Source: Akkermansiaceae bacterium
Lineage (GTDB): Bacteria; Verrucomicrobiota; Verrucomicrobiia; Verrucomicrobiales; Akkermansiaceae
Direction: 5' to 3'
DNA: 64,000 nucleotides
Assembly (NCBI GenBank): GCA_047629805.1
Contig: JBLHUR010000002.1
Location: forward strand, 13,201-77,200
Below the pieces are notes generated by a model. The model made no database searches and was not told the DNA's origin. It saw only the letters and a list, made by a program, of their open reading frames with translations. The translations under genes were made by a program, and so were the position numbers. The stretch's first letter is position 1, and each line of letters starts with the position of its first letter. Shown here piece after piece: positions 7,519 to 52,739 of the stretch.

Positions 7519-7539
7519 CTTACTTGTTTCGTTTTTATT

Positions 7540-9249
7540 TTAAGTGCTCGAGGCAAGGTCAGTTGCCGTGACGGAAGCGACCTCTTCGATTGTCGTGATT
7601 CCCTTCATCACCTTATGCCAACCATATTCCCGCATCGGAACAAAGCCATCCTTGATCGCTTGTGCTTTCAAGATAGGAGCTGCGGCACTCTTTGCGACCA
7701 ACTCTTCCATCTCATTTCCGATTAAAATCACCTCGTAAATCGCAAGTCGTCCCGAGAAACCAGTATTACGACACTTATCACATCCCACCGGCTCATAAAC
7801 CTGCCCTTGGACGTCATCGGGAATCCCGAGGCGGTGACGTTGTCCGATCGAAACCTCCACCGGAGTTTTACAATGCTCACAAAGTCGCCGAACCAGTCGC
7901 TGTGCGAGGAAGGCCCGCACCGATGCGGCCACGAGGAAAGGCTCCACCCCCATATCAACCAAGCGGCTAATCCCGCCGAGGGCATCGTTGGTGTGGAGGG
8001 TTGAGAAAACAAGGTGACCGGTCAGAGAAGCGCGGATCGCGATCTCGGCAGTCTCAAGATCTCGAATCTCACCCAACATCACGATGTTAGGGTCGGCACG
8101 GAGAATGGAACGCAGTCCGCTCGCGAAGGTGAGACCAATCTCACTCTTCACCGCGATTTGCATCACTCCTTCAAGCTTGTTCTCCACCGGATCCTCAATC
8201 GTCACGATGCGCGTGTCGGAAGTATTAAGCTCACTCAGGAAAGAGTAGAGGCTGGTCGATTTACCCGAACCAGTGGGTCCGGTAATCAAAATGATTCCGT
8301 TGGGAAGACTCAGGATGCTTTTGATCTTATCGAGGACCATGTCCTCCATTCCCAAGAGCTCCACATTGAACTTCTCCTGGTTCAAAAGTCGCAAACTTAC
8401 CGACTCACCCTCAACCGTAGGCACGGTTGCGACACGAACGTCGATGGAACTTCCCTCGAACTGAAGGTTAATCCGGCCATCCTGAGGGAGACGGCGCTCG
8501 GCAATATCGAGCTTCGACATGATTTTGAGACGAGCAATCACAGAGGATTGGAGCGATTTAATCTGATCTGGCACCGCGATATCAACCAAGCCACCATCGA
8601 TCCGGTAGCGGATACGGAGGTTATCAGCAAGCGGCTCGACATGAATATCGGTCGCTTTTTGATCCAGAGCTTCCCGGATAATTTGATTCACAAACTTCAC
8701 CACGCTGGCCTCTTCGTCCTCGATCTCATCAATGACACTGGCCTCATCCTTATCGAGATTATCGAGATCGAGATCACGGCCTTCTAAGAGCTTCTCAAAA
8801 GTATCAGCACCCACCCCATAGAGCTTGCGGAGGGACTCATGAACCCGACGGCGCGAAGCCATGTGCCACACGATTGGCAGATCAATCGCCTGGGCCGCCG
8901 CTTGACGGGCCATAAGATTGAGCGGATCATACGTGACCATATGCAAGCGAGCATGCTCGCCCTCTCCCTCGATCTCGATCGGCAAAACGCGGTGCTTCAA
9001 AGCAATCTGCGGACCACAAGCGGTGCGCAGCGGTAAGGGGCTTTCGACAGGAGGAATCTCCGCCAGCCACTCCATGTGGAGGTCGCCGGAAAGATGCTGC
9101 ATGTAGGGCTCCTCATCGACGAGCCCGCTATCTAGAATATCATCGACAGGAGAGCCCTGACGCTGGCTGGCATCTTCGACCGCTTCCTGTAGGGCGGTAA
9201 GATCGGTGCAGCCGGTTTCGCGGGCAGGCTTAATGAGAAGCTCGGTCAT
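7540..9249 (-). CDS. gspE: type II secretion ATPase GspE/PilB family
   Basis: It has Walker A GPTGSGKST, Asp box, Walker B, His box and a tetracysteine CEHCK...CDKCRNTG. I prefer the start at ATG 9249 (MTELLIKPA) over the extended 9390 start. Confidence 0.93.
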   Translation of the reverse strand: MTELLIKPARETGCTDLTALQEAVEDASQRQGSPVDDILDSGLVDEEPYMQHLSGDLHMEWLAEIPPVESPLPLRTACGPQIALKHRVLPIEIEGEGEHARLHMVTYDPLNLMARQAAAQAIDLPIVWHMASRRRVHESLRKLYGVGADTFEKLLEGRDLDLDNLDKDEASVIDEIEDEEASVVKFVNQIIREALDQKATDIHVEPLADNLRIRYRIDGGLVDIAVPDQIKSLQSSVIARLKIMSKLDIAERRLPQDGRINLQFEGSSIDVRVATVPTVEGESVSLRLLNQEKFNVELLGMEDMVLDKIKSILSLPNGIILITGPTGSGKSTSLYSFLSELNTSDTRIVTIEDPVENKLEGVMQIAVKSEIGLTFASGLRSILRADPNIVMLGEIRDLETAEIAIRASLTGHLVFSTLHTNDALGGISRLVDMGVEPFLVAASVRAFLAQRLVRRLCEHCKTPVEVSIGQRHRLGIPDDVQGQVYEPVGCDKCRNTGFSGRLAIYEVILIGNEMEELVAKSAAAPILKAQAIKDGFVPMREYGWHKVMKGITTIEEVASVTATDLASST

Positions 9250-9432
9250 AAGTTGGGTGAGTATTGATAAAACGAGCGAGGTGGGAAGATCTGTCTGCGG
9301 GAATGTTGGGTATTTGAAACTTTTCGCAAGCCGAGATGATTTCCGTTGCGAAATGATCACCTCGCGCCTACTCTCCCGCGTCTGCCTCATGCGCCAGATG
9401 TGGTTAATTGGCCGACCCGATATTATTAATAA

Positions 9433-14485: not shown

Positions 14486-14709
14486 TTCTTAGCCCGGTTC
14501 TTCCACCGATAAATCCACCGCCCCACGAGACAAAGGAAAAGAAGTGCACTGACAACGAGACAGTATTTGGAAATAGGAGTCACCTCTTCCACCACCCCGG
14601 AAGTGAGCAACATGCTCTCGTAGCGAGGCGAGATAAACTTCCCAAAGATAAAAAAAATCACGCTGGTCGCGAAAAACAGCCAGTCGAAAGAGTATTTACG
14701 TGATTTCAT
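14482..14709 (-). CDS. small two-helix membrane protein, hypothetical
   Basis: It translates as MKSRKYSFDWLFFATSVIFFIFGK...LVVSALLFLCLVGRWIY. It shares ATGA overlaps with the mnmE stop (14709-14706) and the cobB start (14485-14482). Confidence 0.5.
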   Translation of the reverse strand: MKSRKYSFDWLFFATSVIFFIFGKFISPRYESMLLTSGVVEEVTPISKYCLVVSALLFLCLVGRWIYRWKNRAKK

Positions 14710-22334: not shown

Positions 22335-23096
22335 GTGCAAAAAGGCCGGAGCTTATTCGTAATCATTTTGGCTCTTGGTGCCGGATCGCTTAGCGTTAAG
22401 CGCATCAGCACCTCAGGAAATGCCCAAGGACTCGACCTCCCCGTCGACGACTACGCCAGCGGACCCAAGCGCTTCTCCGCCGTCAAAGCCAAGGTGACCC
22501 CACATCTCAAAAAGTCCTTCCAAGAAAAGGGCCTCACTTGGGGATCCCCCATCTTCATTCGCGCTTTTAAGGAAGAAAAGACCCTCGAACTCTGGGTCAA
22601 GAAAGGGCAAGAATTCACCCTCTTCCGGACCTACCCCATCGCAGCCGCATCAGGAAAACTGGGCCCAAAGCAAAGCGAGGGCGACCGCCAGGTTCCCGAG
22701 GGCTTCTACTTCGTCAAGCCCCACCAGATGAACCCACAAAGCAACTTCCACCTCTCCTTCAACATCGGCTATCCAAATGCCTTCGACAAAGCCCACAACC
22801 GCAGCGGCAGTTTCATCATGATTCATGGGTCCAATGTCTCCCTCGGCTGCCTCGCGATGACTAACGCCAGGATCGAAGAAATCTACACTCTCGCCAAGGC
22901 CGCCTTCAAGAGCGGTCAACCCTTCTTCCGCGTCCACTTCTTCCCCTTCCACATGACCGCGGAAAAGCTCGCTCGTCACACCACAAATTCCTGGCTCCCT
23001 TTCTGGAAAAATCTGAAAACCGGCTACCAATGGTTCGAGGAAAAAAAGAGCCCGCCCAATGTCACCCTCAAAATTCAAAAATATCATTTTGAGTGA
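22335..23096 (+). CDS. L,D-transpeptidase family protein (YafK-like)
   Basis: It has a GTG start and a signal-anchor. The YkuD-type catalytic region is IMIHGSNVSLGCLAMTN. Confidence 0.8.
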   Translation: MQKGRSLFVIILALGAGSLSVKRISTSGNAQGLDLPVDDYASGPKRFSAVKAKVTPHLKKSFQEKGLTWGSPIFIRAFKEEKTLELWVKKGQEFTLFRTYPIAAASGKLGPKQSEGDRQVPEGFYFVKPHQMNPQSNFHLSFNIGYPNAFDKAHNRSGSFIMIHGSNVSLGCLAMTNARIEEIYTLAKAAFKSGQPFFRVHFFPFHMTAEKLARHTTNSWLPFWKNLKTGYQWFEEKKSPPNVTLKIQKYHFE

Positions 23097-28215: not shown

Positions 28216-29646
28216 TCAATGAATCTCCGGCGTCCCGTAGAGAGTATACCCCGTCGAATCCTCAATTTTAATATCTAACAACTGACCCGTCATCCGCTCA
28301 GCATCGCCATTGAAAATCACAATCTTATTCTGACTCGTCCGCCCACAAAGAGTCTCCTTATTCGACTTACTAGGCCCCTCACACAAAACCTGCTGCACCG
28401 TCCCAATAAACTTGGCATTCTTCGCCGTCGTCATCTCATTTTGCAGAGCCAGCAGAGTCTGATTGCGCTCCTCCTTCGTCTTCTCATCCAGCTGCCCCTC
28501 CATCTCCGCCGCCGGGGTATCCTTCCGCTTCGAGTATCGGAAGATGAAGCTATTATCAAAGCCCACCTTCTTCATGCATTCGTAAGTCTCCTGAAAATCC
28601 TCCTCAGTCTCCCCCGGAAACCCCACAATCACATCCGTCGTGATCGCCAAATCAGGCCGCGCCGCCTGCATCTTCTCGCAGATCGCCAAAAACTTCTCGT
28701 TCTTATAAGGCCGCTGCATCTTCTTCAAAATCCGATCACTCCCACTCTGCATCGGAAAGTGAATGTGCGAGCAAAGCTTTGGTAAATACCTAAACGCCGC
28801 CACCAAATCATCGCGATACCCAATCGGGTGAGGACTCGTAAAACGAATCCGCGCCAGCCCCTCAATCTCATGCACCGCCTCCAGCAGTTGCACAAATGGA
28901 GACTTCCCATCCACCTTCGGAAACTCCGTCCGACCATACAAATTCACAATCTGCCCTAGCAAAGTCACCTCCCGAACTCCTTTGCTCACCAAAGCAGTCA
29001 CCTCCGCGACAATATCAGCAATCGGCCTCCCCCGCTCTTTTCCACGAGTATCCGGCACAATACAAAAAGAGCACCGCATATTACACCCCTGCATAATACT
29101 CACAAAGGCCTTCGCCTGCTGCGTCTCCTTCGGAATGTGATCCTTGATCGTATTCTGACTCCCCAACTCTTCACCGGTATCCACGACCCGGGCCGAAATG
29201 ACCCGATCCAGATTCACCTTCACAATCTCATCCTCCACCCGCCCCGTCTCCATCTCCGCCCCCACCTCATCCATCCGCGTTTCCAGCCGACGGCTCAAGA
29301 TCGAATCCACATAATCAAAAACCCGGTGATACTTCTGCGTCCCCACCACCAAATCCAAATGCGGCACCCGCTTAAAAAGCTCCGCCCCCCGACTCTGCGC
29401 CATGCACCCCATAAAACCAAAGACGACATGCTCACGCTGGTCCCGGTATTTCCCCATAATCCCCATCTTCCCTAGAGCCTTCTGCTCCGCCTGATCGCGC
29501 ACACTACACGTGTTAATCAGGATCGCATCAGCGTCCCGCTCTTCGAGGGTGAGAGTGTAACCTCTTTCAGAAAACGTCTGAGCAACCTGCTCAGAATCAC
29601 GTTCATTCATCTGTCACCCGTAGGTTTTAATAAAGACCTTTGGCAT
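28216..29646 (-). CDS. miaB: tRNA-i6A37 methylthiotransferase MiaB with an in-frame TGA (29616-29614) at the first conserved cysteine
   Basis: The track ORF 28216..29610 has the radical-SAM motif CNMRCSFCIVP plus NTCSVRD, MGCMAQS and a TRAM C-terminus. Reading upstream in the same frame gives ATG(29646) MPKVFIKTYG-TGA-QMNERDSE, the MiaB N-terminus with TGA in place of Cys. Confidence 0.85.
29572..29604 (-). other. SECIS-like bipartite stem-loop downstream of the miaB in-frame TGA
   Basis: On the minus strand it reads 5' GAACG-UGAU-UCUGAGC-AGGUU-GCUCAGA-CGUUU 3'. The upper stem is 7 bp and perfect. The lower stem is 4 bp plus one G-U pair, with a 4-nt 5' bulge. The structure starts 9 nt after UGA, and the apical loop contains GGU about 25 nt from UGA. 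Confidence 0.4.
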
Positions 29647-29760
29647 CGCGCCATCGACTTAGCCCCCAATCCCTCCCTTGCCAATCCCGAAGTGAAAGCC
29701 CTTCACTCCTTTTCGTCCCTCTCCTTCCTCTGTGGTCAAACTCCCCCAAGCAAGTCCTCA

Positions 29761-29965: not shown

Positions 29966-30868
29966 GTGAGCACCCTATCCGACCTCGAACTCGACGCCTT
30001 CATCGAGTTCATGACCACCGAAAAGAACTCTTCCCCCAAAACCCTCGAAAACTACACCCTCGCCCTCCGCCTCCTCCCCGAATTCCTCGGCGAAAAATTC
30101 AGCAAATGGCGTGACCTCACCCCCGACCACTTCCGAGCCTACCTCTTCCAGCTCCAAAAAGACGGCCTCGCCCGCTCCACCATCCGCCTCCGCTTCGCCG
30201 CCTACCGCTCCTTTTACAAATTCCTCGTCCACCGTCGCGGCTATCCCAAAAGCCCCCTCGCCGAAGTCGAACTCCCCAAAGCCGACAAGCCCCTCCCCGT
30301 CGTCCTCACTCTCCCCCAGATCGAAGAACTCCTCGAACTCCCCATGAAGTCCGAGCTCCAGGGCCAAGCCCCCCTCTGGATGCGCGAGCGCGACGCCGCC
30401 ATCCTCGAACTCTTCTACTCGACCGGCCTCCGCCTCGCCGAACTCGCCTCCCTCGATGTCCACAGCATCGACACCGCAAACGAAACCGTCCGCGTCATCG
30501 GAAAAGGCTCCAAAGAACGCCTCGTCCCCATCGGCTCCCTCGCCCTGCTCGCCATGCAAAAATACCGCAGCGCCGCCGAAGTCTGCGAAGGCCCCCTCTT
30601 CCTCTCAAAACTCCGCAAACGCCTCTCCACCCGCTCCCTCAACTCCGTCCTAAAAAAATACCTCGCCCTCTCCACCATCCCCTTCAACGTCACCCCCCAC
30701 AAACTCCGCCACTCCTTCGCGACCCACCTCCTCGACCACGGGGCCGACCTCCGTTCCGTCCAAGCCCTCCTCGGCCACGCCTCCCTCTCCACCACCCAAA
30801 TCTACACCCACGTCACAAAAGAACGCCTCCGCGACGCTTACAACAACGCCCACCCCCGCGCCAAATAA
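29966..30868 (+). CDS. xerC: tyrosine recombinase, XerC-like
   Basis: It has a GTG start and the catalytic C-terminus HKLRHSFATHLLDHGADLRSVQALLGHASLSTTQIYTHV, ending in AHPRAK. The XerC versus XerD assignment is tentative. Confidence 0.85.
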   Translation: MSTLSDLELDAFIEFMTTEKNSSPKTLENYTLALRLLPEFLGEKFSKWRDLTPDHFRAYLFQLQKDGLARSTIRLRFAAYRSFYKFLVHRRGYPKSPLAEVELPKADKPLPVVLTLPQIEELLELPMKSELQGQAPLWMRERDAAILELFYSTGLRLAELASLDVHSIDTANETVRVIGKGSKERLVPIGSLALLAMQKYRSAAEVCEGPLFLSKLRKRLSTRSLNSVLKKYLALSTIPFNVTPHKLRHSFATHLLDHGADLRSVQALLGHASLSTTQIYTHVTKERLRDAYNNAHPRAK

Positions 30869-35515: not shown

Positions 35516-36493
35516 ATGGCCATTCTCGACGTTCAAAATCTCACCACCCGTTTCCACACCCGCAATGGCATCGTCCATGCCGTGGAGGATGTTTCCTTTG
35601 CTCTCGAAAGAGGCGAAACACTTGGTATCGTTGGCGAATCCGGCTCTGGAAAATCCGTGACCTGCTACTCCCTTCTCGGACTCATCCCCCAGCCTCCGGG
35701 ACGCATCCACGCAGGCTCGGCAATGTATGAAGGAACGGACCTTCTCAAGGCGAACGAAAAAACACTCCGCGGCATCCGGGGAAAAAAGATCTCCATGATC
35801 TTCCAGGATCCCATGACTTCGCTCAATCCTTCCATGCGTATCTCCGCCCAGCTCACTGAGCCTCTAGAGATCCACGAAGGCATGAGAGGGAAACCAGCCC
35901 TCCACCGCGCCATCGAAGCACTCGAAGAAGTCGGCATTCCTGATGCCGCAAAACGGATTCAATCCTACCCGCACGAATTCTCCGGCGGCATGCGCCAGCG
36001 CGTCATGATCGCGATGGCCCTCATCACCCGGCCCGATATCCTCATCGCCGATGAGCCTACCACCGCGCTCGATGTCACGGTCCAAAAACAAGTCCTCGAC
36101 CTGATCAAAGACCGCCAAAATGAACTCGGCACCGCTGTCGTCCTGGTCACACACGACCTGGGCGTCGTCTCGCAAGTCTGTGATAAAGTGAACGTCATGT
36201 ATGCCGGACGGATCGTCGAATCAGCAAGCGCCACCGACCTCTTCGCGGAGCCTCGCCACGCCTACACCCGCGCCCTCCTCAAGAGCATCCCGGCAATGCA
36301 CAAAAAGGGCGAAAGACTCTACACCATCCCCGGACTCCCACCCAACCTCAACGAGGCCCCTTCTTCTTGCTCCTTTCACCCGCGCAATACTCTCGGAAAC
36401 GCTTCGCTTTGTCTCACTGCCGCAGCTCCCCAACTGACCGAAATCGTCCCCGGCCACTCGGTGCAAAACTGTCCGGGCTGCCTCGCCTCATAG
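35516..36493 (+). CDS. oligopeptide/dipeptide-type ABC transporter ATP-binding protein (OppD/DppD-like), no neighbouring permease or binding protein
   Basis: It has Walker A GESGSGKSV, FSGGMRQRVMIAMAL, LIADEPTTALD and a C-terminal oligopeptide-type Cys/His tail CSFHPRN...CPGC. The start is ATG 35516 (MAILDVQNLT). Confidence 0.88.
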   Translation: MAILDVQNLTTRFHTRNGIVHAVEDVSFALERGETLGIVGESGSGKSVTCYSLLGLIPQPPGRIHAGSAMYEGTDLLKANEKTLRGIRGKKISMIFQDPMTSLNPSMRISAQLTEPLEIHEGMRGKPALHRAIEALEEVGIPDAAKRIQSYPHEFSGGMRQRVMIAMALITRPDILIADEPTTALDVTVQKQVLDLIKDRQNELGTAVVLVTHDLGVVSQVCDKVNVMYAGRIVESASATDLFAEPRHAYTRALLKSIPAMHKKGERLYTIPGLPPNLNEAPSSCSFHPRNTLGNASLCLTAAAPQLTEIVPGHSVQNCPGCLAS

Positions 36494-36498
36494 TTCTC

Positions 36499-37386
36499 AT
36501 GGAGTATCAGGTCGATAGCTTCATCCTCTATCTCGCAACCGAGCGAGGGCTTTCGACCGCTTACCAACTCTCCGTCCGACAGACGCTCGACAAGCTCCTC
36601 CCCTGGTGTGAAAAAAATGGGCACAAGGAATGGCGAGACCTCGGCACCGACGAACTCGCCTCCTTTCTGGGCCATCTTCGAAAAGGTCACATCGATGCCT
36701 CATCCCTGCGTATCGCCCTCGTTCATCTCAAGATCTTCTTCCGCTTCCTCCAGAAGCGACAGCACATCGAGATCGATCCTGCCGAACCTCTCCTCTCGCC
36801 CAAAACCGCGGCCAAGCTTCCCGAAACTCTCAACGCACAGACGGTCGCAAAGCTCCTCGCTTCCATCGACCCTGAAAAGAAGCTCGGCAAACGCGACCTC
36901 GCCTTACTGGAGCTTTTCTACGCCTCGGGCCTTCGCCTTTCCGAAATCTGTGGCGCCCGGCTCGAGTATCTTGACCAGGAAGACCATTTCCTCCGCATCA
37001 CCGGAAAGGGTAATAAAACACGTCTCGTTCCCGTCGGAGGAAAAGCCCTTGAAGCGATCGACCGCTACCTCACCGTCGAACGGCCCACTTTGGTTTCCAA
37101 GAAAACCTCTTCCTTTATTTTCCTCTCGATCCGAGGCGGTCCATTGTCACCGGATCGCGTGCGACAGATCGTCAAAGAACGCGCGAAGCAGGCCGGTATT
37201 GAGCAAAACATCTACCCTCACCTCCTGCGGCATTCCTTCGCGACCCACCTCCTGGAAAACGGGGCCGACCTCCGCGTCATTCAGGAACTCCTGGGTCATG
37301 CCGACATCGCCACTACCCAAATCTACACCCACCTCGATCAGAAGCGGCTCAAGGCGGTGCACAAAAACTTCCACCCTCGCGGGTGA
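36499..37386 (+). CDS. xerD: tyrosine recombinase, XerD-like
   Basis: It contains RDLALLELFYASGLRLSE and HLLRHSFATHLLENGADLRVIQELLGHADIATTQIYTHL. The start at ATG 36499 lies 5 nt after the ABC ATPase stop. Confidence 0.85.
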   Translation: MEYQVDSFILYLATERGLSTAYQLSVRQTLDKLLPWCEKNGHKEWRDLGTDELASFLGHLRKGHIDASSLRIALVHLKIFFRFLQKRQHIEIDPAEPLLSPKTAAKLPETLNAQTVAKLLASIDPEKKLGKRDLALLELFYASGLRLSEICGARLEYLDQEDHFLRITGKGNKTRLVPVGGKALEAIDRYLTVERPTLVSKKTSSFIFLSIRGGPLSPDRVRQIVKERAKQAGIEQNIYPHLLRHSFATHLLENGADLRVIQELLGHADIATTQIYTHLDQKRLKAVHKNFHPRG

Positions 37387-37534
37387 AGAGAGGGAGAACA
37401 AGGAGGGACATCTCTCTGAGTGTCCAACTGTGCGGGCTCCCCCCTTTTTGGTCCTCGCAGCTGGGGGCTCTGGAGAGCCACCTTCCTTGGTTGCACCGCT
37501 CCTCGGAAAACACAGAGACGGACGCGTGCTCCGA

Positions 37535-38242
37535 CTAGTCTTTCCCCTTCGTGAGCTTGCTCAGCTCCATGACTTGATGGATGAGGCGCTTACTTGCGGA
37601 GTAGTAGGTTTTTTCCTCCTTCACGAAGCCCTTTCCTTTCGTAAACCAGATCGTGCGCTTGATTTCTATTGGCCCGGATTGGCCGGTCATGACGATACGG
37701 ATCGCCTTAAAAGTGCCGGCAGGAACGCGGACTTCCTCTTCACCAAAGATCCTGAACTTTCGCGTGAACAAGGCCGTCTCTACTCCGTCGCCCGCTTTAA
37801 TTTCCCATTGGTCGCCAGGCTTGTTCGCCGCAGTGTAGATGAGCAAGGGCTTGCTTAGAAGAATGAGCTTACTGTCTTTCTTGGTCGCATCCTTGGAACC
37901 AAGAGCGTAGATCGCGTCTTTCTTAAAGTCACTGAATTCAAATTCCATCACTCTCCCGGAGCGGACAATTTGAAAGGTATCAAGATCCGCACCGCCGGTT
38001 TTGGCCTTCGTTTTCCCCATGTAAATCCGGGTCTTTTTAAAGGAGGCCTTTACGCCATCGGCGGTTTTCTTGACAACGACATCGTCACCACTTGGCATGG
38101 TGGCTCCGCGTGGAGCATCCACCGTAACCTGATATTCCCAGCTGTCTCCCTTGGTTAGCAGAAGCAAAGGGGCCTCGTCTGCAAAGGCAGACGAGGCGAT
38201 TGAAAAAGCCGAGGCAAGAGCGATGAAGGGGCAAACGTTCAT
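37535..38242 (-). CDS. secreted hypothetical protein encoded immediately downstream of the secretin
   Basis: It has a signal peptide MNVCPFIALASAFSIASSAFA. It is 235 aa and beta-rich in composition. I do not recognise the family. Confidence 0.7.
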   Translation of the reverse strand: MNVCPFIALASAFSIASSAFADEAPLLLLTKGDSWEYQVTVDAPRGATMPSGDDVVVKKTADGVKASFKKTRIYMGKTKAKTGGADLDTFQIVRSGRVMEFEFSDFKKDAIYALGSKDATKKDSKLILLSKPLLIYTAANKPGDQWEIKAGDGVETALFTRKFRIFGEEEVRVPAGTFKAIRIVMTGQSGPIEIKRTIWFTKGKGFVKEEKTYYSASKRLIHQVMELSKLTKGKD

Positions 38243-38287: not shown

Positions 38288-40699
38288 TTAGCGGCGTCCG
38301 GGACGTCCGGTTCTACCGCGAATCTTTGATTGCGTGCTGCTCGAATCGGTCCCAGGGGCAACTTTCCTTACTGGGATAACTCCACCTCTGGAATCGGGCT
38401 CTTGATACCGGGGCATCGTTCCCGGAGCTGGCAAAACACCGCTGTTCTGTGGGAAAGACTGGGCGACCTCATTGGTATGCTGTGAACTCTGCGAGTAGTC
38501 GTCACGGAAGCCATTCAGCTCCGTCTGCGTCTTGAGAATACGCGGCTGGATCATGATGATCAGTTCAGCTTGGTTTTTAGTATTATCAGTGCTTCCAAAG
38601 AGTTTTCCAATTCCAGGGATCTTACTCAGAATAGGGATGCCACTGTTGGTTTCATTTTCAGAGGTTGTGATGATACCACCGAGGATGACGGCAGAACCAT
38701 CTTCGACCGTGACGGAGGTCGTGAGCGACTCCGTGTTAATGTCCGGCACAATCAATTCACCGATTGTGCGGTTGGCCCCGACAGAGTCACGCACCACCGA
38801 GATCTCCAAGGTGATTTGGTTGTCAGAGTTGATGAGAGGCTGGATCTCAAGTCCCAGCGTGACATTCAGGTATTCGACATTCGTGGTGGAGGTACCATTG
38901 TTGTTAAAACCTTGAGAAGTGCTCGAAGGAACCGCAATTCTTTTTCCGGAAGAAAGCGAGGCGACGCGGTTATTACGAGTCGTCAAGGTGGTTCGCTCAA
39001 GAGTCTTAAACCTCGTCTGTGTTTCCAAGGCATTCACGAAGAAGCCAAAGTCGTCATTAATGGCTCCATAGACTGAGACCCCGTTACCGGCACCGCCATT
39101 GGCAGAGAGAATATTTCCGAGGTCTCCCAGGTCAGTGGGGTTCAAAACTCCATTACCAAAGCGAGCGAGGCCACCAGCGGCAAAACTGCTTCCAGTCTCA
39201 CGAATCGCCCGGGCCAGATCGACTCCAAAGTTCAAGCCATCTCCGATGGTATAACTCCCAACGACTGACGAGAGAACCACCTGCTGGGACTCGGTATCGA
39301 GGTCCTTAATAAGGTCGCGGACGATCTCGATGTGGTGAGGCGGGCCGTTCACGATGATGGTGTTGGCCACATTGTCTCCCACGAGGAGGGTCCGACCCAC
39401 AAGCATAGACTCAGGAGCGGTGGGAATGTCCTGCGCCTGAATGCTGGCCTGAGTGCCCCCACCTTGTTGCCCCTGCTGGCCGGTGCTCCGAGTACTGTTG
39501 TTGTTATTGTTATTATTATTTTGGGTGTTCCGGCTGTTATTATTTTGGCCGGCAAGTTGACGGCTGCTTCCGCCTTGTCCGCCGCCGCCCTCGGCGTCAC
39601 CCAGTTGGACCGAGATCGCGCTTTCCGCAATTCCCAGGAAGTCACCGACCCGGAGATAGCGAAGACGGAAAGTCTGGCGGGTATTCTCACTACTGGGCTG
39701 GTCGAAGGTTAGCACCATGGCCTCGGCCGCAATGAGATCGGCAGGCCGGCCTACGAGAAGAATCCGACTGGTGCGGCGCACTCCGATGATCTTGATTGGG
39801 ATTTCCTCGCCAGAAGTAGCGGCACCTGGAACGGATCCAGGAGTGGGAGGAGCATTGGTCCGAGTGGTCCGGGTCGTTTGACGATTGGAGGCCTGCTCGT
39901 TGTAAATTTCATTCATGCGCTCGGCAATCTCATCGACGTCACCATAAGTGACATCGACCCACCTCTCGCCAATTGGAGTAGGAACATCGATCAGGTCCTT
40001 GATCTCGATCATCTGTCGGATGAGCGAGGAGTTCTCGGTGATGATCAACGAGGAAGCATTGGGAACTGCGGTGATGTTTCCGGAGGCACTGAGCTGGCCC
40101 ATCGCGGCTTGGAGAACTTTGAGCGCGTCCTCAGGCTTGAGGTAGCGGAGAGTCATCTGGTAGGTGACAATCTCATCATCGGCGGGAAGATCGAAGGGGT
40201 CTGTGAAGACACCGTTCGGAACCTGACTAATCGCGGTGATGGGGCCTGAAGGGACAAGTCGAACGATGTCCGGCTCACCGGGGATGGGGATCATGGCAAG
40301 CCCTTCACCCAGGAGGATCAATTTGAGAAACTTGGCGACCTCGGCATTGGTCAAAGGACCACGGATGACAAAGGAGACCTCGGATTGAGCCACCGCGTTG
40401 GTCATAATGATCCTCTTGTCGCAATGATCTTCATACAAGACCGCTGCTTCGAGAGCGGTAAGATTAGCCCTCGTGATGTCACCATCGGCAGCAATCGCAA
40501 GTTGATTAGGATCAACTTTCCCAGCACGGAATCCACCCACCTTGGCAGGTCCTACGGGCTGGATGCCGGGTGCTACAGGCTGGATGGCGGGAACAGGAGT
40601 CGGCACACCTGGCTGTGAGCCGGGCGTTCCCGGAGTGGGAGGCTCTTGAGCCCATGCTCCAAGAGAGAGGCCGAAAAGTAATGTGAGAGAGCGGTTCAT
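38288..40699 (-). CDS. gspD: secretin, GspD/PilQ family outer-membrane channel
   Basis: It has a signal peptide and N-domain repeats. The C-terminal secretin domain ends in NSGIPILSKIPGIGKLFGSTDNTKNQAELIIMIQPRIL. There is an internal N/Q/G-rich low-complexity insert. Confidence 0.9.
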   Translation of the reverse strand: MNRSLTLLFGLSLGAWAQEPPTPGTPGSQPGVPTPVPAIQPVAPGIQPVGPAKVGGFRAGKVDPNQLAIAADGDITRANLTALEAAVLYEDHCDKRIIMTNAVAQSEVSFVIRGPLTNAEVAKFLKLILLGEGLAMIPIPGEPDIVRLVPSGPITAISQVPNGVFTDPFDLPADDEIVTYQMTLRYLKPEDALKVLQAAMGQLSASGNITAVPNASSLIITENSSLIRQMIEIKDLIDVPTPIGERWVDVTYGDVDEIAERMNEIYNEQASNRQTTRTTRTNAPPTPGSVPGAATSGEEIPIKIIGVRRTSRILLVGRPADLIAAEAMVLTFDQPSSENTRQTFRLRYLRVGDFLGIAESAISVQLGDAEGGGGQGGSSRQLAGQNNNSRNTQNNNNNNNNSTRSTGQQGQQGGGTQASIQAQDIPTAPESMLVGRTLLVGDNVANTIIVNGPPHHIEIVRDLIKDLDTESQQVVLSSVVGSYTIGDGLNFGVDLARAIRETGSSFAAGGLARFGNGVLNPTDLGDLGNILSANGGAGNGVSVYGAINDDFGFFVNALETQTRFKTLERTTLTTRNNRVASLSSGKRIAVPSSTSQGFNNNGTSTTNVEYLNVTLGLEIQPLINSDNQITLEISVVRDSVGANRTIGELIVPDINTESLTTSVTVEDGSAVILGGIITTSENETNSGIPILSKIPGIGKLFGSTDNTKNQAELIIMIQPRILKTQTELNGFRDDYSQSSQHTNEVAQSFPQNSGVLPAPGTMPRYQEPDSRGGVIPVRKVAPGTDSSSTQSKIRGRTGRPGRR

Positions 40700-40726
40700 A
40701 TAGAAAAAAGGAAGAGGTGAGAAAAG

Positions 40727-41374
40727 TTATTTGGTCTTCGAGGGACGGGGAACGTAGCGCGTGCGTTTGGATTTCGAACTGGTGCTCGCAGCTCTGGTGG
40801 TAGTACTGGTCTTAGCGGCAGAGGGCTGGGGAACCACACCTGGCTTCGCGGGAGTCGCACCTTTCGAAGAACGGACACCTGGAGGAGTGGGAGGCTGAGC
40901 CCCGGTCCTGCCATTACTGCGGGTCCCGGTTTTACCCGCGACTGCTGGACGTTGCGCCGTGGGTCCGGCAACCTTCTTGAGGACGAGATATTTTGCATCA
41001 AATCTCACTTCGCCGGTGTCATTGCCTTTTTGGAGAGTGACGACGCTGTCCTTCAGGTAGTTCCGATTATGATCGACCTTCTTAATCGAGAATCCCAATT
41101 CCGTGGCATCCTTGCTGGGGATCGTGACACGGGAGCGGTCCTTGATATTCATGATCTGGACCACGGTCTTGCCGATATACTTGGAGACTCCGACGAGGAC
41201 CCAGTCAGGGAGATCGCTGGGAATTTCATCTGGCTTTTCCACAATCGGCGGGTCCGTGAGGGCAGATTTCAGATAAAGATCCTTATAGCGATCTGCACGA
41301 TGATTTTCAGGAGGCGCAGCGAGGGCAAGGCCGCTCGCGAAGACGGTGATGAGGAGAGTATTTAAAACTTTCAT
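40727..41374 (-). CDS. periplasmic protein upstream of the secretin (PilP/GspC-position), basic low-complexity C-terminus
   Basis: It has a signal peptide MKVLNTLLITVFASGLALA and a small globular domain, then a Pro/Thr/Lys/Arg-rich tail. The functional call is by gene position only. Confidence 0.65.
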   Translation of the reverse strand: MKVLNTLLITVFASGLALAAPPENHRADRYKDLYLKSALTDPPIVEKPDEIPSDLPDWVLVGVSKYIGKTVVQIMNIKDRSRVTIPSKDATELGFSIKKVDHNRNYLKDSVVTLQKGNDTGEVRFDAKYLVLKKVAGPTAQRPAVAGKTGTRSNGRTGAQPPTPPGVRSSKGATPAKPGVVPQPSAAKTSTTTRAASTSSKSKRTRYVPRPSKTK

Positions 41375-41394
41375 AAGCTTACAAGGTGTGGGGA

Positions 41395-41925
41395 TTAAAC
41401 ATCGTCAGGGGTGATAATCCATTTCTCGACTTCGATCTCGCATTCCACGCGAGTGGGGTCGTTATTCTGGGGTTTCATTTCCATCTTGGTCACCACCTGA
41501 CGTTGGGTGGGTTGATGGATGCTGGTGAGCCAGGAGAAGACATCGCGCTCCATGCCAGTCACTTTAAAAAGAACCCGCACACGGTCGTAGTGTAGGCCGG
41601 GCTGATAGGGGAGAATACGGGAGTCACGGATATCGAGACTCCGTGCGCTGGCCTGCTTGCGGAGAAGAGTTTGCAGCTTCGACTGGGCAACCGGTGGGTT
41701 GGTTGCGATGGTACCGGTTCTCTCCAACCACTGAATCTCGGGCTCGAGTTCCGCGCTTTGAGAAAGGACCCGCTCAGCCTCTTCGAGCTTTCCTTCGGCA
41801 ATCGTTTTTTCACCTCTGGCTTTGTTGATGGCAGGGCTGTAAAAGGAATTGAAGCCGACCAGATTCAGAATGATAAAGAGAGCGACTCCCAGGAAGATGA
41901 GGAGATTTTTTTCACGTGGTGTCAT
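41395..41925 (-). CDS. bitopic inner-membrane assembly protein, GspM/PilO-like
   Basis: It has an N-terminal TM (LLIFLGVALFIILNLVGF), then a coiled-coil and a small periplasmic domain. It sits between the GspL-like and PilP-like genes. Confidence 0.6.
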   Translation of the reverse strand: MTPREKNLLIFLGVALFIILNLVGFNSFYSPAINKARGEKTIAEGKLEEAERVLSQSAELEPEIQWLERTGTIATNPPVAQSKLQTLLRKQASARSLDIRDSRILPYQPGLHYDRVRVLFKVTGMERDVFSWLTSIHQPTQRQVVTKMEMKPQNNDPTRVECEIEVEKWIITPDDV

Positions 41926-41931
41926 GTTGGC

Positions 41932-43233
41932 TTACTGGGTTGCGTTTCCGGTAAAGATAAAAGTCAGTTTCCCGCTTCTTCTGTCTATAGTTTCTGGAGG
42001 AATATCCCATCGGAACGCTTCAAGGTCTTTGCTGTCGCTTAAATTCCCGGAAAAAATGGGTATTTTTGGCTGATCTGTCTGATCTGCCTGTCCTTCCAGC
42101 ACCACCTCACGGGCGACCCGGAGATCGCCGTCAATCTCGCGGAACTGATTGATCAAGCTCACCTTTTTTAGGCGGATGAAGCGCTCGGTATTCGTATTAG
42201 GGAGCGCCCGATAGGAGCCCAAGAAGACTTCGAAGGGATGGAATTTGTCTTCCACCACGGGCTGAAGTTCAAACCACTTTGACTGGTGAGCTAGGAGGAA
42301 GTCAGCCTCTTCTGAAATCCCGCTGGAGTCCCGCTTGGCTTGCACCGCTTCTTTTTTGGCCTTTTGAAGGTCAAGAAAGAGGTAAGCAGCCAAGCCGATG
42401 TATGCGAGGATGAGGGCTGCGATGAGGAGATTGCGGTTACGCATCCCTTTTTTGGCGAGGCGCTCGGCCCGCACATCCGCCGGGAGAAGGCGGCTGGGTG
42501 GCGATGGCCAGGTCGGCGCGGGTTTCGGTGAGGTTTGCACCGCCAGTCCGAGGCCTCGTCCGAAGGCTTCGATTTCCTCCGGGCGCACGTCGCTCGCAGA
42601 CCCATGAGTCCAGATGATCGCCTCATCCGGAACTTGTGGAAGAAGGCCTTGCATCTGGAGTTGGGTGAGAGCCAGACGGACCTCATTGCCCGCGCGGTCG
42701 TCGAGTTGCACCCCGGAGAGAACCTGAAAGTAGAGAGCCTGACCGGGTTTCCCGACTCCGAAGATCCAACGTCCCAATTCACGCCAAACCACCACTTTGC
42801 CCGTGGGGAGAGGGAGACAGCGAGGTGAGATATCAAAGGCCTGCGGGCTTTTGCGAGGAAGTTGCCCTTCGGAGGAAGGATTCATCACGATCGCCGTGAG
42901 ATGGGTCTCCTCGGGTGAAGTGCCAAAGACAAAGTGATCGGTCAATTGTCCCCCATCAAGGGCGGGACGAATGCCGTTTTTCTCAAGCTGCATCGCGGCA
43001 AGGTCACCGAGAAGCGCGAGATCACCCGTCTGCGCCCGAAAAGGAACGGCTGATACCTGGCGGACCGGAATCGCCATCTCAATCGGTCCAGACGGGTAGC
43101 CGGTGACATCGAGCGCGAGAAGGTGCCCGGTCGCGGCGTGTTGGCTGAAGCCGGCAGCATTAGAGCCGGTCCAAATCTCCCAGCCATCGGCCCCAGGCAT
43201 TAGTATATTAAGGTCTCCTTTTTTAGCACTCAT
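41932..43233 (-). CDS. bitopic assembly protein, GspL-like (cytoplasmic domain, one TM, periplasmic domain)
   Basis: It is 433 aa with a central TM (LLIAALILAYIGLAAYLFL). It overlaps gspK by 4 nt. The call rests on architecture and position. Confidence 0.6.
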   Translation of the reverse strand: MSAKKGDLNILMPGADGWEIWTGSNAAGFSQHAATGHLLALDVTGYPSGPIEMAIPVRQVSAVPFRAQTGDLALLGDLAAMQLEKNGIRPALDGGQLTDHFVFGTSPEETHLTAIVMNPSSEGQLPRKSPQAFDISPRCLPLPTGKVVVWRELGRWIFGVGKPGQALYFQVLSGVQLDDRAGNEVRLALTQLQMQGLLPQVPDEAIIWTHGSASDVRPEEIEAFGRGLGLAVQTSPKPAPTWPSPPSRLLPADVRAERLAKKGMRNRNLLIAALILAYIGLAAYLFLDLQKAKKEAVQAKRDSSGISEEADFLLAHQSKWFELQPVVEDKFHPFEVFLGSYRALPNTNTERFIRLKKVSLINQFREIDGDLRVAREVVLEGQADQTDQPKIPIFSGNLSDSKDLEAFRWDIPPETIDRRSGKLTFIFTGNATQ

Positions 43234-44156
43234 TGTATTACGACTTCTTTTCGATCAAGGATCTGGGGGTTCTGCGTCCGTCCGCTGATGATGAGGACGA
43301 CCTTACGCCGAATCGAGCCCGCAAAGCCAACGCTTTCGATTCGTTTCACGGGATCCTCTGAAGCGAGTCTCCCGGGAATCACTCCGCTGGGATCTTCGAT
43401 CCCGAGATTGGCGAGCGCATCCTGCACCGAGAGAGGTTGATCATCCTCGGTATTCCTAATGCCATCGGCTCCATCGGTGATGTCGATGAGCGGCTGGACC
43501 TGCTGGATATCGGTCTCGGTGGCCATCGCAAGGAATTCAGCCGGGGCCTCGACGACGTCGAGTCCCCCACTACTCCAAACGGTAAACCAGTCCCGCCAGC
43601 GTGGGTTGAGGGCTTCCACCAAATCCATCCCGCGAACGAGGCGGACTTCATCGAGTTCGTAGAAAGGACGGTTGAAGGGACGGTTAAAGTGACCTTGGCC
43701 TTCGTAGTAATCGAATTCTGCACCGTTCAGTTGAGTGTCGTCATCGGAGTCGATCCAGTCGATCAAAGCGTCGGCGATCTCCGAGGCCACATCGAAATCA
43801 ACCCCCCACTTTTGGAAGATATCGCGCAGGAGCTTCTTATCTTCCTGAAAGAGGATGTAGTTAATGTTAAAGCGACCACCTTCAGAAAGGATTTTGGCTT
43901 GAAAGCCAGCATCGTTTTCAAAATTCTGTCTCAGAATCGGATCCCATTCCTCGACGGAAGGATTGGCAGCGAGATTAATCCCCATTTCCGCGTATTGGCG
44001 GGCTTCGATGCCGTTGATTTGCGAGGACGCGACATCGGACTGGTAACGCGAAATCTTCACCGTCGCAACAAGGGCGAGCCCCATGACGGCCATGATCCAA
44101 AAGACCGCAATGAGCGTCGCTCCGCGTTTCAGGGATGGATGATTTGAAACTTTCAT
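43230..44156 (-). CDS. gspK: type II secretion minor pseudopilin GspK
   Basis: The N-terminus KRGATLIAVFWIMAVMGLALV lacks Glu+5, as in GspK. The protein is about 300 aa and lies after gspJ. Confidence 0.8.
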   Translation of the reverse strand: MKVSNHPSLKRGATLIAVFWIMAVMGLALVATVKISRYQSDVASSQINGIEARQYAEMGINLAANPSVEEWDPILRQNFENDAGFQAKILSEGGRFNINYILFQEDKKLLRDIFQKWGVDFDVASEIADALIDWIDSDDDTQLNGAEFDYYEGQGHFNRPFNRPFYELDEVRLVRGMDLVEALNPRWRDWFTVWSSGGLDVVEAPAEFLAMATETDIQQVQPLIDITDGADGIRNTEDDQPLSVQDALANLGIEDPSGVIPGRLASEDPVKRIESVGFAGSIRRKVVLIISGRTQNPQILDRKEVVIQ

Positions 44157-45022
44157 CGTCCTGCTGGTGGAGTTGTTCCAGGGTTTCCGCCACTCTGAGG
44201 GCGCCCGCCGCCTTCGGGTCGGGCGCCGGTTGGTCGCCCGCCGCCTCCCGTCCCGTTGCCTCCTTGAGGCCGTCCAGGCTCAGTTTGCCCGCCATTACCA
44301 GTGGACCCTTGCTCAATGGGGCTGCCCGCCTTGTTCTTGAGCGCGTTCATGGTCGTTTGAGGATTCGCTTTTGTCGGAATCCAGAAGAGGCGGGTGATCG
44401 CGGGATCGTCGTTCTCGAAGATGACTTTCAATTCGACATAGGTGGGACGTCGGTTGTTCTCCTCCCAGATGTAGGGCCAGTCATCACGTTCAAAATTATT
44501 ATACTTCCGGCCGTCCATCACGCTCCATTCAAAGAGGCGGACGTCATTGAGAAGGACGATCGAAGCAATGGGGTCGATCCCCCGCTCGGCCGGCCCCTCG
44601 TCGCTGTCGAGAATGGGTTCGTCGTAATACTCCAGAACGATGTCGATCCCGTTGGTAATGGTGGGCACGGTGATGAGACGAGTGGCTTCCGCTGAAATCG
44701 GAACTCCGCCCCAGTTGAAGGAGACGGGAGTGTTTTGAAAAGTCATCTCCGAAAGAAAGGGCTCGGCACTGCTGGTGTTTTGCAGATTAATGACAGCATT
44801 TCCGGGAAGGCTGTCGAAGTGGTTGCGGAGGAAGGAGAAAAAGGCATCGCGCGAGATGTCTTCATTCTGCATATCAACCATCTTCGTCGTGGACCGGACT
44901 GCTCCGTCGGCGATGCGGAAGATAGAGGTGAGAACCAATCCCGCGATCCCCAGCGCGAGGACTAACTCAAACAGGGTAAAACCCTTTTTGGTGGGAGATG
45001 AATGAGGGGTATTTTGCTTCAT
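44153..45022 (-). CDS. gspJ: minor pseudopilin, GspJ-like, with Gly/Pro-rich C-terminal tail
   Basis: It has the prepilin motif KKGFTLFELVLALGIAGL. It shares 4-nt overlaps with both neighbouring genes. Confidence 0.75.
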   Translation of the reverse strand: MKQNTPHSSPTKKGFTLFELVLALGIAGLVLTSIFRIADGAVRSTTKMVDMQNEDISRDAFFSFLRNHFDSLPGNAVINLQNTSSAEPFLSEMTFQNTPVSFNWGGVPISAEATRLITVPTITNGIDIVLEYYDEPILDSDEGPAERGIDPIASIVLLNDVRLFEWSVMDGRKYNNFERDDWPYIWEENNRRPTYVELKVIFENDDPAITRLFWIPTKANPQTTMNALKNKAGSPIEQGSTGNGGQTEPGRPQGGNGTGGGGRPTGARPEGGGRPQSGGNPGTTPPAGR

Positions 45023-45429
45023 GGCTTATAAAGTGGGAGGTAACGCCAGCCCCGCACGGTGCGTTCTTGCTCGAAGCCGTCTTGTTTGAAGCGGGCGATG
45101 ACTCGGATCTCCCACATTTGTTGGAGGAGATTTCCCTCTTGGGTTTCAAGTTCCAGCGGGATGACCTGGGTCTCCAAGTCGATATCCCGCTCGGCAATAT
45201 AGATTTCGGTGGATCCTTCCTCAAGCTGCTGGAGATAAAGGGTCTCTTGCAGTGCGCTATCGATGATTTGCGTAATGACCAGCTCCTCCTTCACGAAGGA
45301 GGTATTTCGCCACATGCTGTTGATACCCCTGGTAAAAGAGGTCGCGACAATCGCAAAAATCATGAGAGCCAGAAGCACCTCCATCATCATGAAGCCGGAT
45401 CTGTTTTTTCCTGACGAGTGGGTCTTCAT
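45019..45429 (-). CDS. gspI: minor pseudopilin, GspI-like
   Basis: It has the prepilin motif RSGFMMMEVLLALMIFAIV and is 136 aa. Confidence 0.75.
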   Translation of the reverse strand: MKTHSSGKNRSGFMMMEVLLALMIFAIVATSFTRGINSMWRNTSFVKEELVITQIIDSALQETLYLQQLEEGSTEIYIAERDIDLETQVIPLELETQEGNLLQQMWEIRVIARFKQDGFEQERTVRGWRYLPLYKP

Positions 45430-46016
45430 TCTGTATTATTGATCGTCATTTCCTCATCGGTCGCCTTGGCGGTGAGAGGGTGAAAAGCGCGAGAGAGGAT
45501 AGCGTCGCCATTTTCCGAGATCAACTGGATCGCAAGAGGTTCACAAGGACTGTTGGGTTGGTGAATCCAGCGCTCCACTGTATTCTCTCCGACTAGCTTG
45601 AAGTCATTGCTGTTCCAACGTCGCACCCAAAGTGCGTATTTCGGATCAATTTTATAGACCCGGGGCCAGGACATGCTGTCGAGCGGTTTCAGCGACGGGG
45701 GCGTGCCGAGGTTTTCTGACAACTCCTCCGCAACTTTATCTTCAGGCTGAGCCAAGGGCATCATGCGCGCCTCCCCCTCCCGCAACTCGATTACGAACGG
45801 CTGCTGGTAGGAATAAGACATCGCGCGGGCTTGCTGGGCAAGATCCTCGATTCCGTGATGGGCTTCTCGAATCTCCTTCTCGATCTTGGGAGAGGAGATC
45901 ATGAAAGCCGCCGCGCCAAAGACGATGGCCACGATGCCCATCACCACAATCAGCTCAATCAAGGTGAAGCCAGCACGGCTCCCGATGAGGGTCTTTTGTT
46001 TTGATGATAAGCGCAT
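45426..46016 (-). CDS. gspH: minor pseudopilin, GspH-like
   Basis: It has the prepilin motif RAGFTLIELIVVMGIVAIV and is 196 aa. Confidence 0.75.
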   Translation of the reverse strand: MRLSSKQKTLIGSRAGFTLIELIVVMGIVAIVFGAAAFMISSPKIEKEIREAHHGIEDLAQQARAMSYSYQQPFVIELREGEARMMPLAQPEDKVAEELSENLGTPPSLKPLDSMSWPRVYKIDPKYALWVRRWNSNDFKLVGENTVERWIHQPNSPCEPLAIQLISENGDAILSRAFHPLTAKATDEEMTINNTE

Positions 46017-46058
46017 GGCAGTAGGATTACGGGTGAACGAGAGGCACCTTGGTGCTGA

Positions 46059-46517
46059 TTACCTTGGATCCTGATTACTTTGGTCATCATCTGACCCAAA
46101 AGCCTTGTCGGGACCGGCCGAAATGATCTCAGGTCGGCTGGCATCCTGCGTCCCGGGATACTGATACTTATACTTGGTGTCCCAAGGATCTAAGAGGGCC
46201 GCTTCGTCTTTCAGCGTTTTAATCCAGCGTCGCGGCCGGGGAGAATCGGCAGGCTTTTTCAAGAGAGCTTCAAGACCCTGCGAAGTCGAGGGATACACGC
46301 CCCCGATGTTTTTGTATTGCTCCAAATTGGACTCAAAACTTGTCATATCCTGATCGGTCGTCCCCACTTTGGCCGACTCACTAATCTTACCCATGCTGTA
46401 AATAGCACCGCCCAGAATGAGGCCGATGATTCCCATAACGATCACCATTTCGAAGAGGCTGAAGCCGCGAGCCATGCGCGGACTGACTTGGTTATTTTCC
46501 TTGGATTGAATTTTCAT
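46059..46517 (-). CDS. gspG: major pseudopilin GspG
   Basis: It has the motif ARGFSLFEMVIVMGIIGLILG. The GspG body motifs are YPSTSQGLEALL and DPWDTKYKYQYPG. Confidence 0.9.
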   Translation of the reverse strand: MKIQSKENNQVSPRMARGFSLFEMVIVMGIIGLILGGAIYSMGKISESAKVGTTDQDMTSFESNLEQYKNIGGVYPSTSQGLEALLKKPADSPRPRRWIKTLKDEAALLDPWDTKYKYQYPGTQDASRPEIISAGPDKAFGSDDDQSNQDPR

Positions 46518-50278: not shown

Positions 50279-50516
50279 TCATCCTGGAAAGTCGATTTGA
50301 ATCCGCCGGCCATTGGGACGATCTTTGGCAAAAAATAGCAGCGTGAAACCACCGAAAAAAATCCCCCCCCTTGCCAAAGGAAGTCAGGACTGCCATCTTC
50401 ACCGAAATGAATGATCGGTGGTTTAATTCTTCACTTTGGCGAAGGAAACTCCGCCTCCCAAACGTTTCACATTACGAATCATCCTTACTTAGTCTTTGCT
50501 CACCCACGACGACCAC

Positions 50517-51773: not shown

Positions 51774-51836
51774 ATGTCCAGCCCGGCGAGCTCAATAGGT
51801 CCCATAAGCCCTAGATGACCTATTCCTTCAGCTAGC

Positions 51837-52730: not shown

Positions 52731-52739
52731 ACTTCACCC

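Follow-up and report, generated by a model that had tools for sequence, protein, structure and literature searches.

The fdhF gene of Escherichia coli is the prototype of bacterial selenoprotein genes with an intragenic selenocysteine insertion sequence (SECIS). MiaB is a radical S-adenosylmethionine (SAM) enzyme that converts N6-isopentenyladenosine at tRNA position 37 (i6A37) to its 2-methylthio derivative (ms2i6A37). Here we describe a miaB gene that combines features of both, located on 64,000 nucleotides of DNA from an Akkermansiaceae bacterium (assembly GCA_047629805.1, contig JBLHUR010000002.1, positions 13,201 to 77,200 of the forward strand; this whole stretch is referred to below as the window). 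Codon 11 of this gene, a cysteine codon in Cys-type relatives, is an in-frame UGA followed by a SECIS-like hairpin, and we consider it highly probable, from comparative sequence data, that the codon is decoded as selenocysteine (Sec).

The locus shares with the intragenic-SECIS genes a UGA at the position of the homologues' Cys, a G-G-U loop within 16-37 nt of it, and Sec-to-Cys exchanges among relatives. It differs from them in its host family, which is new, in that the Sec machinery was not observed in the lineage (window and related loci), and in that Sec would be a predicted [4Fe-4S] ligand, not a redox-active or Mo/W/Ni-bound residue. Compared with Cys-type MiaB (TIGR01574; Bacteroides uniformis structures 7MJV-7MJZ), the protein has the same three domains, the same CxxxCxxC motif and the same spacing of auxiliary-cluster ligands; the difference is that the first auxiliary ligand is specified here by UGA with a downstream hairpin, and not by TGY.

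A May 2026 inventory comprises 119 prokaryotic selenoprotein families or subfamilies and holds no MiaB or methylthiotransferase (PMC13188914). Predicted selenoproteins with Sec at a Cys metal-ligand position are FdhA, [NiFeSe] hydrogenase, the Fe-S cluster domain protein NF005503, 2Fe-2S-binding proteins and HgcB (PMC13188914). None of these is a tRNA-modifying enzyme or a methylthiotransferase, whereas the cluster of MiaB takes part directly in sulfur transfer (PMC5352715). The radical SAM selenoproteins TIGR04167 ('Radical SAM domain protein', GxxU) and TrsS (NF045646) share with the window protein the superfamily and a predicted Sec (PMC13188914), but the Sec proposed here would lie in the N-terminal UPF0004 domain, outside the motifs of those families, and neither model was among the NCBIfam matches of the window MiaB at E <= 1e-10. 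A selenoprotein-specific MiaB model was likewise absent among the NCBIfam June 2026 matches of the protein, and a Sec form of any methylthiotransferase was not found in the full-text literature, reviews, databases or text supplements that were searched. Very probably, then, the protein family is new as a selenoprotein and the insertion mechanism is the ordinary bacterial Sec pathway.

The miaB gene and its codon 11

The elements of the gene are given below in the direction of transcription; all lie on the minus strand.

28216..29646, minus strand: full miaB coding sequence read by translation, 476 codons including the UGA at codon 11
29617..29646, minus strand: ATG and nine codons P-K-V-F-I-K-T-Y-G, the first beta-strand of the UPF0004 domain
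29614..29616, minus strand: codon 11, an in-frame TGA and putative selenocysteine codon
29572..29604, minus strand: SECIS-like hairpin within the coding sequence, from the fold
29604-29600 with 29576-29572, minus strand: lower stem, GAACG with CGUUU
29599-29596, minus strand: UGAU bulge
29595-29589 with 29583-29577, minus strand: upper stem, UCUGAGC with GCUCAGA
29588-29584, minus strand: apical loop, AGGUU
29506..29508, minus strand: Cys47 (TGT), second auxiliary-cluster ligand, in N-T-C-S-V-R-D; aligns with Cys63 of 7MJV
29404..29406, minus strand: Cys81 (TGC), third auxiliary-cluster ligand, in M-G-C-M-A-Q-S; aligns with Cys97 of 7MJV
29062..29085, minus strand: radical SAM cluster motif C188-x3-C192-x2-C195 (G-C-N-M-R-C-S-F-C), from the sequence; the Pfam Radical_SAM match runs from residue 182
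28218-28216, minus strand: miaB terminator, TGA

The ATG (29646-29644) is followed by nine sense codons (PKVFIKTYG), the TGA (29616-29614) and QMNERDSEQ, and beyond the TGA the frame is open for 465 more codons to the stop. An earlier examination of the sequence by itself (the original prediction) had proposed this reading together with intact NTCSVRD and MGCMAQS cysteines; its coordinates and sequence were reproduced and both cysteines were found. The gene-caller annotation covers 28216-29610 only (464 amino acids, from Met13). With Cys placed at position 11, the protein scores 469.8 bits against TIGR01574, the MiaB equivalog model (cut-off 355.3), and falls below the cut-offs of the sister models for MtaB (TIGR01579, 319.8 versus 357.05) and RimO (TIGR01125, 297.7 versus 356.95). 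Its Pfam architecture is UPF0004 (3-102), Radical_SAM (182-356) and TRAM (413-472); because the UPF0004 match begins at residue 3, the domain starts upstream of the TGA. As judged from these features, the gene very probably encodes a full-length MiaB in which the UGA at codon 11 is read through, with a predicted ms2i6A37 activity.

In an alignment with Bacteroides uniformis MiaB (PDB 7MJV), position 11 corresponds to Cys27. All methylthiotransferases hold the auxiliary [4Fe-4S] cluster of their UPF0004 domain by a Cys-X35-36-Cys-X32-33-Cys motif; this cluster keeps a site free for coordination and bears the sulfur destined for methylation and transfer (PMC5352715). The spacing U11-X35-C47-X33-C81 fits this motif, and its first position is filled only if the UGA is read as Sec or Cys. 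Sec11 is thereby predicted to be one of the three protein ligands of the auxiliary cluster.

Eighty miaB loci of Akkermansiaceae and Verrucomicrobiales, with protein identities of 72-91%, were retrieved in one scan of species-representative genomes. Codon 11 is TGA in 50 of these and, counting the window, in 51 of 81 Akkermansiaceae-type genes. The original prediction had proposed aligning relatives at this column, and it holds TGA or Cys only: the remaining 30 genes have TGC or TGT, and no other codon occurs. Fifteen metagenome contigs code for the protein as annotated from Met13, and the ten that were examined, which are independent of one another, all carry TGA at codon 11. Among the 120 closest protein-database clusters listed, 117 begin at MNER[D/Y]SEQ, that is at Met13, and the three full-length entries all have Cys.

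Selection on the codons around the TGA was measured across the 50 TGA-type sequences. In the nine codons from start to TGA, pairwise identity at codon positions 1, 2 and 3 is 0.996, 0.983 and 0.515, with pS 0.72, pN 0.009 and pN/pS 0.013, such that synonymous change is nearly saturated; the N-terminal strand of the TGA forms is the same as in the Cys-type orthologues. Codons +1 to +20 after the TGA give pS 0.589, pN 0.068 and pN/pS 0.116. The 60 nt preceding the start share only 31-35% identity among TGA-type species, and a TAA in the same frame, five codons before the ATG, rules out an alternative start in the window's clade. The conservation pattern of the decapeptide argues that it is translated in frame and selected as protein, and that ribosomes read through the TGA. 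The coding signal which the original prediction had noted on either side of the TGA was thus measured as purifying selection on both sides, indicating that the UGA is read through and that both flanks are translated as one protein.

In the window, TGA ends 26 of the 59 open reading frames (ORFs), among them mnmE, a YkuD-domain gene, an integrase gene and miaB itself, and the three sites previously cited as genuine stops (14706-14708, 23094-23096 and 37384-37386) are all TGA. Since TGA terminates these ORFs, miaB included, the recoding is specific to codon 11.

A conserved TAAGCG (TAAGTC in the window) is located ~15 nt upstream of the miaB start, within 29647-29665, in surrounding upstream DNA that is unconserved. 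It is the source of the in-frame TAA, is shared by the window's clade at homologous positions (loci L011-L030, L037, L038, L050 and L072), and could belong to a signal for regulation or for the initiation of translation.

Outside the family, metagenomes were scanned with the pattern T-F-G-TGA-Q-M-N, giving nine matches. One (L099) is of the same lineage, with Phe for Tyr; the others are a Terracidiphilus singleton (L098), two decayed 5' duplicates (L093 and L096), a short fragment with an early stop soon after (L097), a groundwater contig (L095) and three sequences that are not miaB. No second Sec-MiaB lineage was found among these nine matches, which come from the Phe form of the pattern and not from its Tyr or Trp forms. 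The Terracidiphilus contig (Acidobacteria) likewise reads TGA at this miaB codon, where 119 of the 120 closest homologues listed have Cys, one of them at 99% identity. Judged from these homologues, its TGA is a singleton error or nonsense mutation, and it serves as a negative control for accidental TGA.

At L093 (~570-2000) and L096 (reverse, first ~700 nt), a decayed 5' copy of miaB lies upstream of an intact Cys-type miaB. The decayed copies read ..TFG-TGA-QMNEADSR.. and stop after 29-48 codons, and between the copies is an inserted segment, which in L093 holds an ORF resembling, by eye, a Bro-N/anti-repressor. The arrangement suggests that a mobile element entered miaB at its 5' end and duplicated its target there. 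L095, a short contig of low GC content, has K-T-F-G-TGA-Q-M-N-V-A-D-S on its reverse strand (TGA at 2151 of the reverse complement), and MiaB sequence then runs on for 38 codons, up to the contig end; its TGA may come from a source organism in which UGA is reassigned (code 4 or 25), or may be an error.

The hairpin and the history of the UGA and Cys forms

The hairpin starts 9 nt after the UGA, and the spacing from UGA to loop is 25 nt; the stems, bulge and GGU loop of the original prediction were reproduced exactly. The published model of the bacterial SECIS (bSECIS) has a loop of 3-9 nt with a G in the first two loop positions, an upper stem of 4-16 bp, a spacing of 16-37 nt and a minimum free energy (MFE) of <= -7.5 kcal/mol, the loop typically being N1-G-[G/U]-N-N2 (PMC13188914). 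The window hairpin agrees with these constraints (AGGUU loop, 7 bp upper stem, 25 nt, MFE about -16 to -18 kcal/mol), so the earlier comparison of its geometry with bacterial SECIS elements holds.

Constraint on the RNA was assessed at synonymous sites. We codon-aligned 78 complete coding sequences and calculated, within the 48 TGA-type genes, the diversity of each amino-acid-conserved column (294 columns, Met and Trp excluded). Synonymous diversity is zero in only two of the 294 columns, codon +8 (all GAG) and codon +9 (all CAG). The lowest 4-codon window of the whole gene is +8..+11 (0.35 bits; next independent window, 0.82 bits), and it is here that the upper stem and loop, GAGC-AGGUU-GC, are encoded. 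In the 30 Cys-type genes these codons are free to vary (GAG/GAA 18/11, CAG/CAA 19/11, GTC/GTG/GTT 15/10/5). Moreover, across 44 distinct TGA-type sequences the proposed structure has 89% of cells paired, compared with 31-48% when the partners are slid by one to three columns.

The predicted folds also separate the two types. A C28-G34 closing pair with an AGGUN loop is present in the MFE fold of 50/50 TGA forms versus 5/30 Cys forms, and all bSECIS constraints with a strictly contiguous stem are satisfied by 35/50 TGA forms versus 0/30 Cys forms. Twelve of the 15 TGA forms that fail have one A-C stem mismatch, five of these being also short on energy (-6.2 kcal/mol), and the remaining three have a 4 bp stem with an MFE of -6.5 to -7.2 kcal/mol. 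The argument for an RNA element rests on the synonymous-site test and this contrast between TGA and Cys forms, which together point to an RNA-level constraint on the hairpin apex in UGA forms only. No Rfam family matches the hairpin region (best E-value 0.75). The original prediction had envisaged that orthologues might uniformly have Cys and lack a conserved hairpin; the opposite was found, the column being split between TGA and Cys and the apex frozen only in TGA forms.

In a neighbour-joining tree of MiaB proteins, from which the N-terminal columns were left out, the TGA forms fall in three or four clades with Cys forms nested inside. Four Cys forms, L028, L040, L061 and L064, are nested in Sec clades, and the last two combine TGT with an intact hairpin. 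The cultured Roseibacillus persicicus and R. ishigakijimensis (L042, L047) are likewise nested Cys forms and have kept the stem, with the loop changed to AAGUG. The closest cultured relative, 'Verrucomicrobiaceae bacterium 227' (CP144259.1; complete genome of 6.34 Mb, miaB at L100:1001-2431), has a MiaB 87% identical to that of the window; its gene reads TGT and then GAGCAGGTTGCTCAG, with the hairpin sequence intact, and is one base from the Sec form. Luteolibacter and Haloferula, a large clade, are Cys-type throughout. Every cultured relative in the set is a Cys form and every TGA form is a metagenome-assembled genome (MAG) or metagenome contig; going by record titles, the TGA forms appear to be mostly marine or saline-water MAGs.

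Because Cys forms are nested within Sec clades, at least four Sec-to-Cys replacements are indicated; these conversions are recent, and some have left a fossil hairpin. The topology implies that Sec would have reverted to Cys four or more times by a single-base change, TGA to TGT or TGC, and that the Sec state is probably old in marine Akkermansiaceae.

Decoding of the UGA

The selenocysteine MiaB of the original prediction is supported by the Cys-or-UGA pattern, the read-through constraint, the UGA-specific hairpin and the fit to the bSECIS model, and it is on these that we infer Sec rather than Cys at codon 11. By the established bacterial Sec pathway, the hairpin with its AGGUU loop 25 nt past the UGA would act as a SECIS element, recruiting SelB-GTP-Sec-tRNA(Sec) to a ribosome with UGA-11 in the A site; the terminal UGA of miaB, which has no such element, would lead to termination. 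Sec11, Cys47 and Cys81 would then ligate the auxiliary [4Fe-4S] cluster, with Se instead of S presumably bound to one cluster iron, and the cluster would bear the sulfur to be methylated and passed on to tRNA. On this scheme, SelA, SelB, SelD and tRNA-Sec should be present in TGA-type genomes.

Several observations weigh against decoding as Sec. A tRNA scan found no tRNA in the window and no tRNA-Sec in 60 related loci, a motif scan for SelA, SelB and SelD was negative in the 64 kb window and 100 related loci, and no SelA, SelB or SelD Pfam match occurred among ~55 window ORFs. Four Akkermansia reference genomes lack selenium-utilisation markers (PMC12341817), so the trait is not general in the family. 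Nor did a second selenoprotein gene come to light, either in the window or in the flanks of the related loci: we used a split-ORF scan, a search for UxxC/CxxU in intergenic gaps and an all-against-all U/C alignment of ORFs (window and 100 loci), and the miaB site was the sole survivor, the remainder being off-frame artefacts.

The hairpin itself contributes further points of this kind. In the window it folds at -17.9 kcal/mol with a z-score of -1.5, and 21/200 shuffles fold equally well; the Cys-type relatives fold about as stably, in other shapes (Mann-Whitney p = 0.08). Since Cys forms use other stems (CGCGAC...GTCGCG) imposed by the R-D...V-A codons, stability does not discriminate, and we rejected it as evidence. 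Whether the hairpin co-varies with the TGA, a point raised in the original prediction, has a divided answer: the apex is frozen only in TGA forms, but compensatory covariation is weak. It is confined to one pair (UA, CG, UG), shuffle controls are not exceeded and RNAalifold recovers the apical 4 bp only. This weakness follows from the invariance of the hairpin core, and covariation was set aside in favour of the synonymous-site test. The hairpin sequence is also partly forced by the S-E-Q-V-A codons.

On the Terracidiphilus contig (L098:3994-5313, minus strand; contig Ga0326727_10028479), E-K-V gives AAGGUU, and a UCCGA-AAAGGUUA-UCGGA hairpin stands at the same distance from the TGA. This hairpin indicates that E-(Q/K)-V codons yield 'AGGUU' by themselves.

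SECIS-dependent systems that recode UGA as Cys are known, and UGA-11 might be read as Cys or another standard residue, either through a SelB-like factor that brings in a Cys-tRNA able to read UGA, or through efficient near-cognate read-through aided by the hairpin and by the weak UGA-C termination context. The evidence for read-through and for a conserved hairpin fits such decoding equally well, as does the failure to see selA, selB, selD or tRNA-Sec in the window and related loci and the lack of selenium-utilisation markers in Akkermansia spp. We nevertheless regard it as improbable: the hairpin fits the bSECIS model with its G-G-U loop at the canonical distance, and a Cys product could be obtained from TGY at no cost, yet TGA persists in ~50 species on deep branches. 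Near-cognate read-through, for its part, mostly inserts Trp, which is unable to ligate the cluster. We think it less probable still that UGA-11 is a true stop, with MPKVFIKTYG as a conserved leader peptide of 10 residues and re-initiation at AUG 29610, three nt on, giving an enzyme without its first ligand. UGA-CAG-AUG is a plausible stop-restart spacing, and the annotation agrees with such a start, at Met13, in 117 of the 120 closest clusters listed. However, the supposed leader is the first UPF0004 strand, identical to the N-terminus of Cys-type proteins, and its pN/pS of 0.013 is sensible only for part of an enzyme. Met13 is the M of G-C-Q-M-N, invariant in all MiaBs and therefore not a lineage-specific start, and a protein starting there would miss one of three essential ligands (PMC5352715). 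Re-initiation also leaves unexplained why the codon alternates with Cys only and why the apex is frozen only in TGA forms.

Two further alternatives question the codon or the code. Singleton TGAs at this codon do exist, in Terracidiphilus and in the decayed 5' duplicates, and the original prediction had itself listed a nonsense mutation or a base-call error as alternatives; but an error of sequencing or assembly, or decay of the gene through a nonsense mutation, is effectively refuted by the occurrence of TGA on 10 independent contigs and in 50 of 80 species-level genomes from many laboratories, and by coding constraint on both sides of the codon in a gene under purifying selection over its whole length. 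As for genome-wide reassignment of UGA (genetic codes 4 or 25), one report describes UGA-to-Trp reassignment in some Verrucomicrobiota (PMC13462651). This explanation is refuted for the present locus, where TGA closes ORFs throughout the window, miaB among them, and where relatives hold Cys, not Trp or Gly, at codon 11.

If UGA-11 is indeed decoded as Sec, a housekeeping tRNA-modification enzyme joins the prokaryotic selenoproteins, and a natural S-to-Se swap is found at a ligand of an Fe-S cluster directly engaged in sulfur insertion. The mechanism of the auxiliary cluster is debated, the cluster being seen as a sacrificial sulfur donor or as a carrier of exogenous sulfide. Closely related Sec/Cys enzyme pairs (87-91% identical) are available for testing, with strain 227 a single base from the Sec form. 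Going further, we lean towards the view that Sec is a genuine ligand of the sulfur-donating cluster, long kept in uncultured marine Akkermansiaceae, which would make ms2i6A37, and hence UNN decoding, selenium-dependent, with the Se-Fe bond tuning redox potential, oxygen tolerance or turnover in a cluster that catalysis consumes. In abundant marine Verrucomicrobiota, the fidelity of translation would in that event be tied to selenium availability. More remotely, the enzyme's product might be a methylseleno and not a methylthio nucleoside. That all cultured relatives are Cys forms would hint at a selenium-related cultivation bias. The family has been missed by selenoprotein scans of marine metagenomes, and the database entries cut at Met13 (117 of the 120 closest listed) are without a catalytic ligand.

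Other genes of the window

Two XerC/D-type tyrosine recombinase genes (29966-30868 and 36367-37386) lie within 7 kb, the first of them divergent beside miaB and split or differently called in the metagenome variants L002, L006 and L007. Type II secretion/pseudopilin genes occupy 38288-46517 and 6232-9390 and encode a secretin, a T2SS-K-like protein, GspG-type pseudopilins and N-methylation-motif proteins; the genes for the GspE ATPase and the GspF platform protein are separate, ~30 kb from the pseudopilin cluster. An operon at 50496-57007 contains genes for a MoxR AAA+ ATPase and a DUF58/VWA protein and a BatA-like aerotolerance gene, and is followed by a 758-residue ORF without a Pfam match. 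A 416-codon ORF without a Pfam match at 36608-37858 (plus strand) overlaps the integrase gene 36367-37386 in another frame and is probably spurious.

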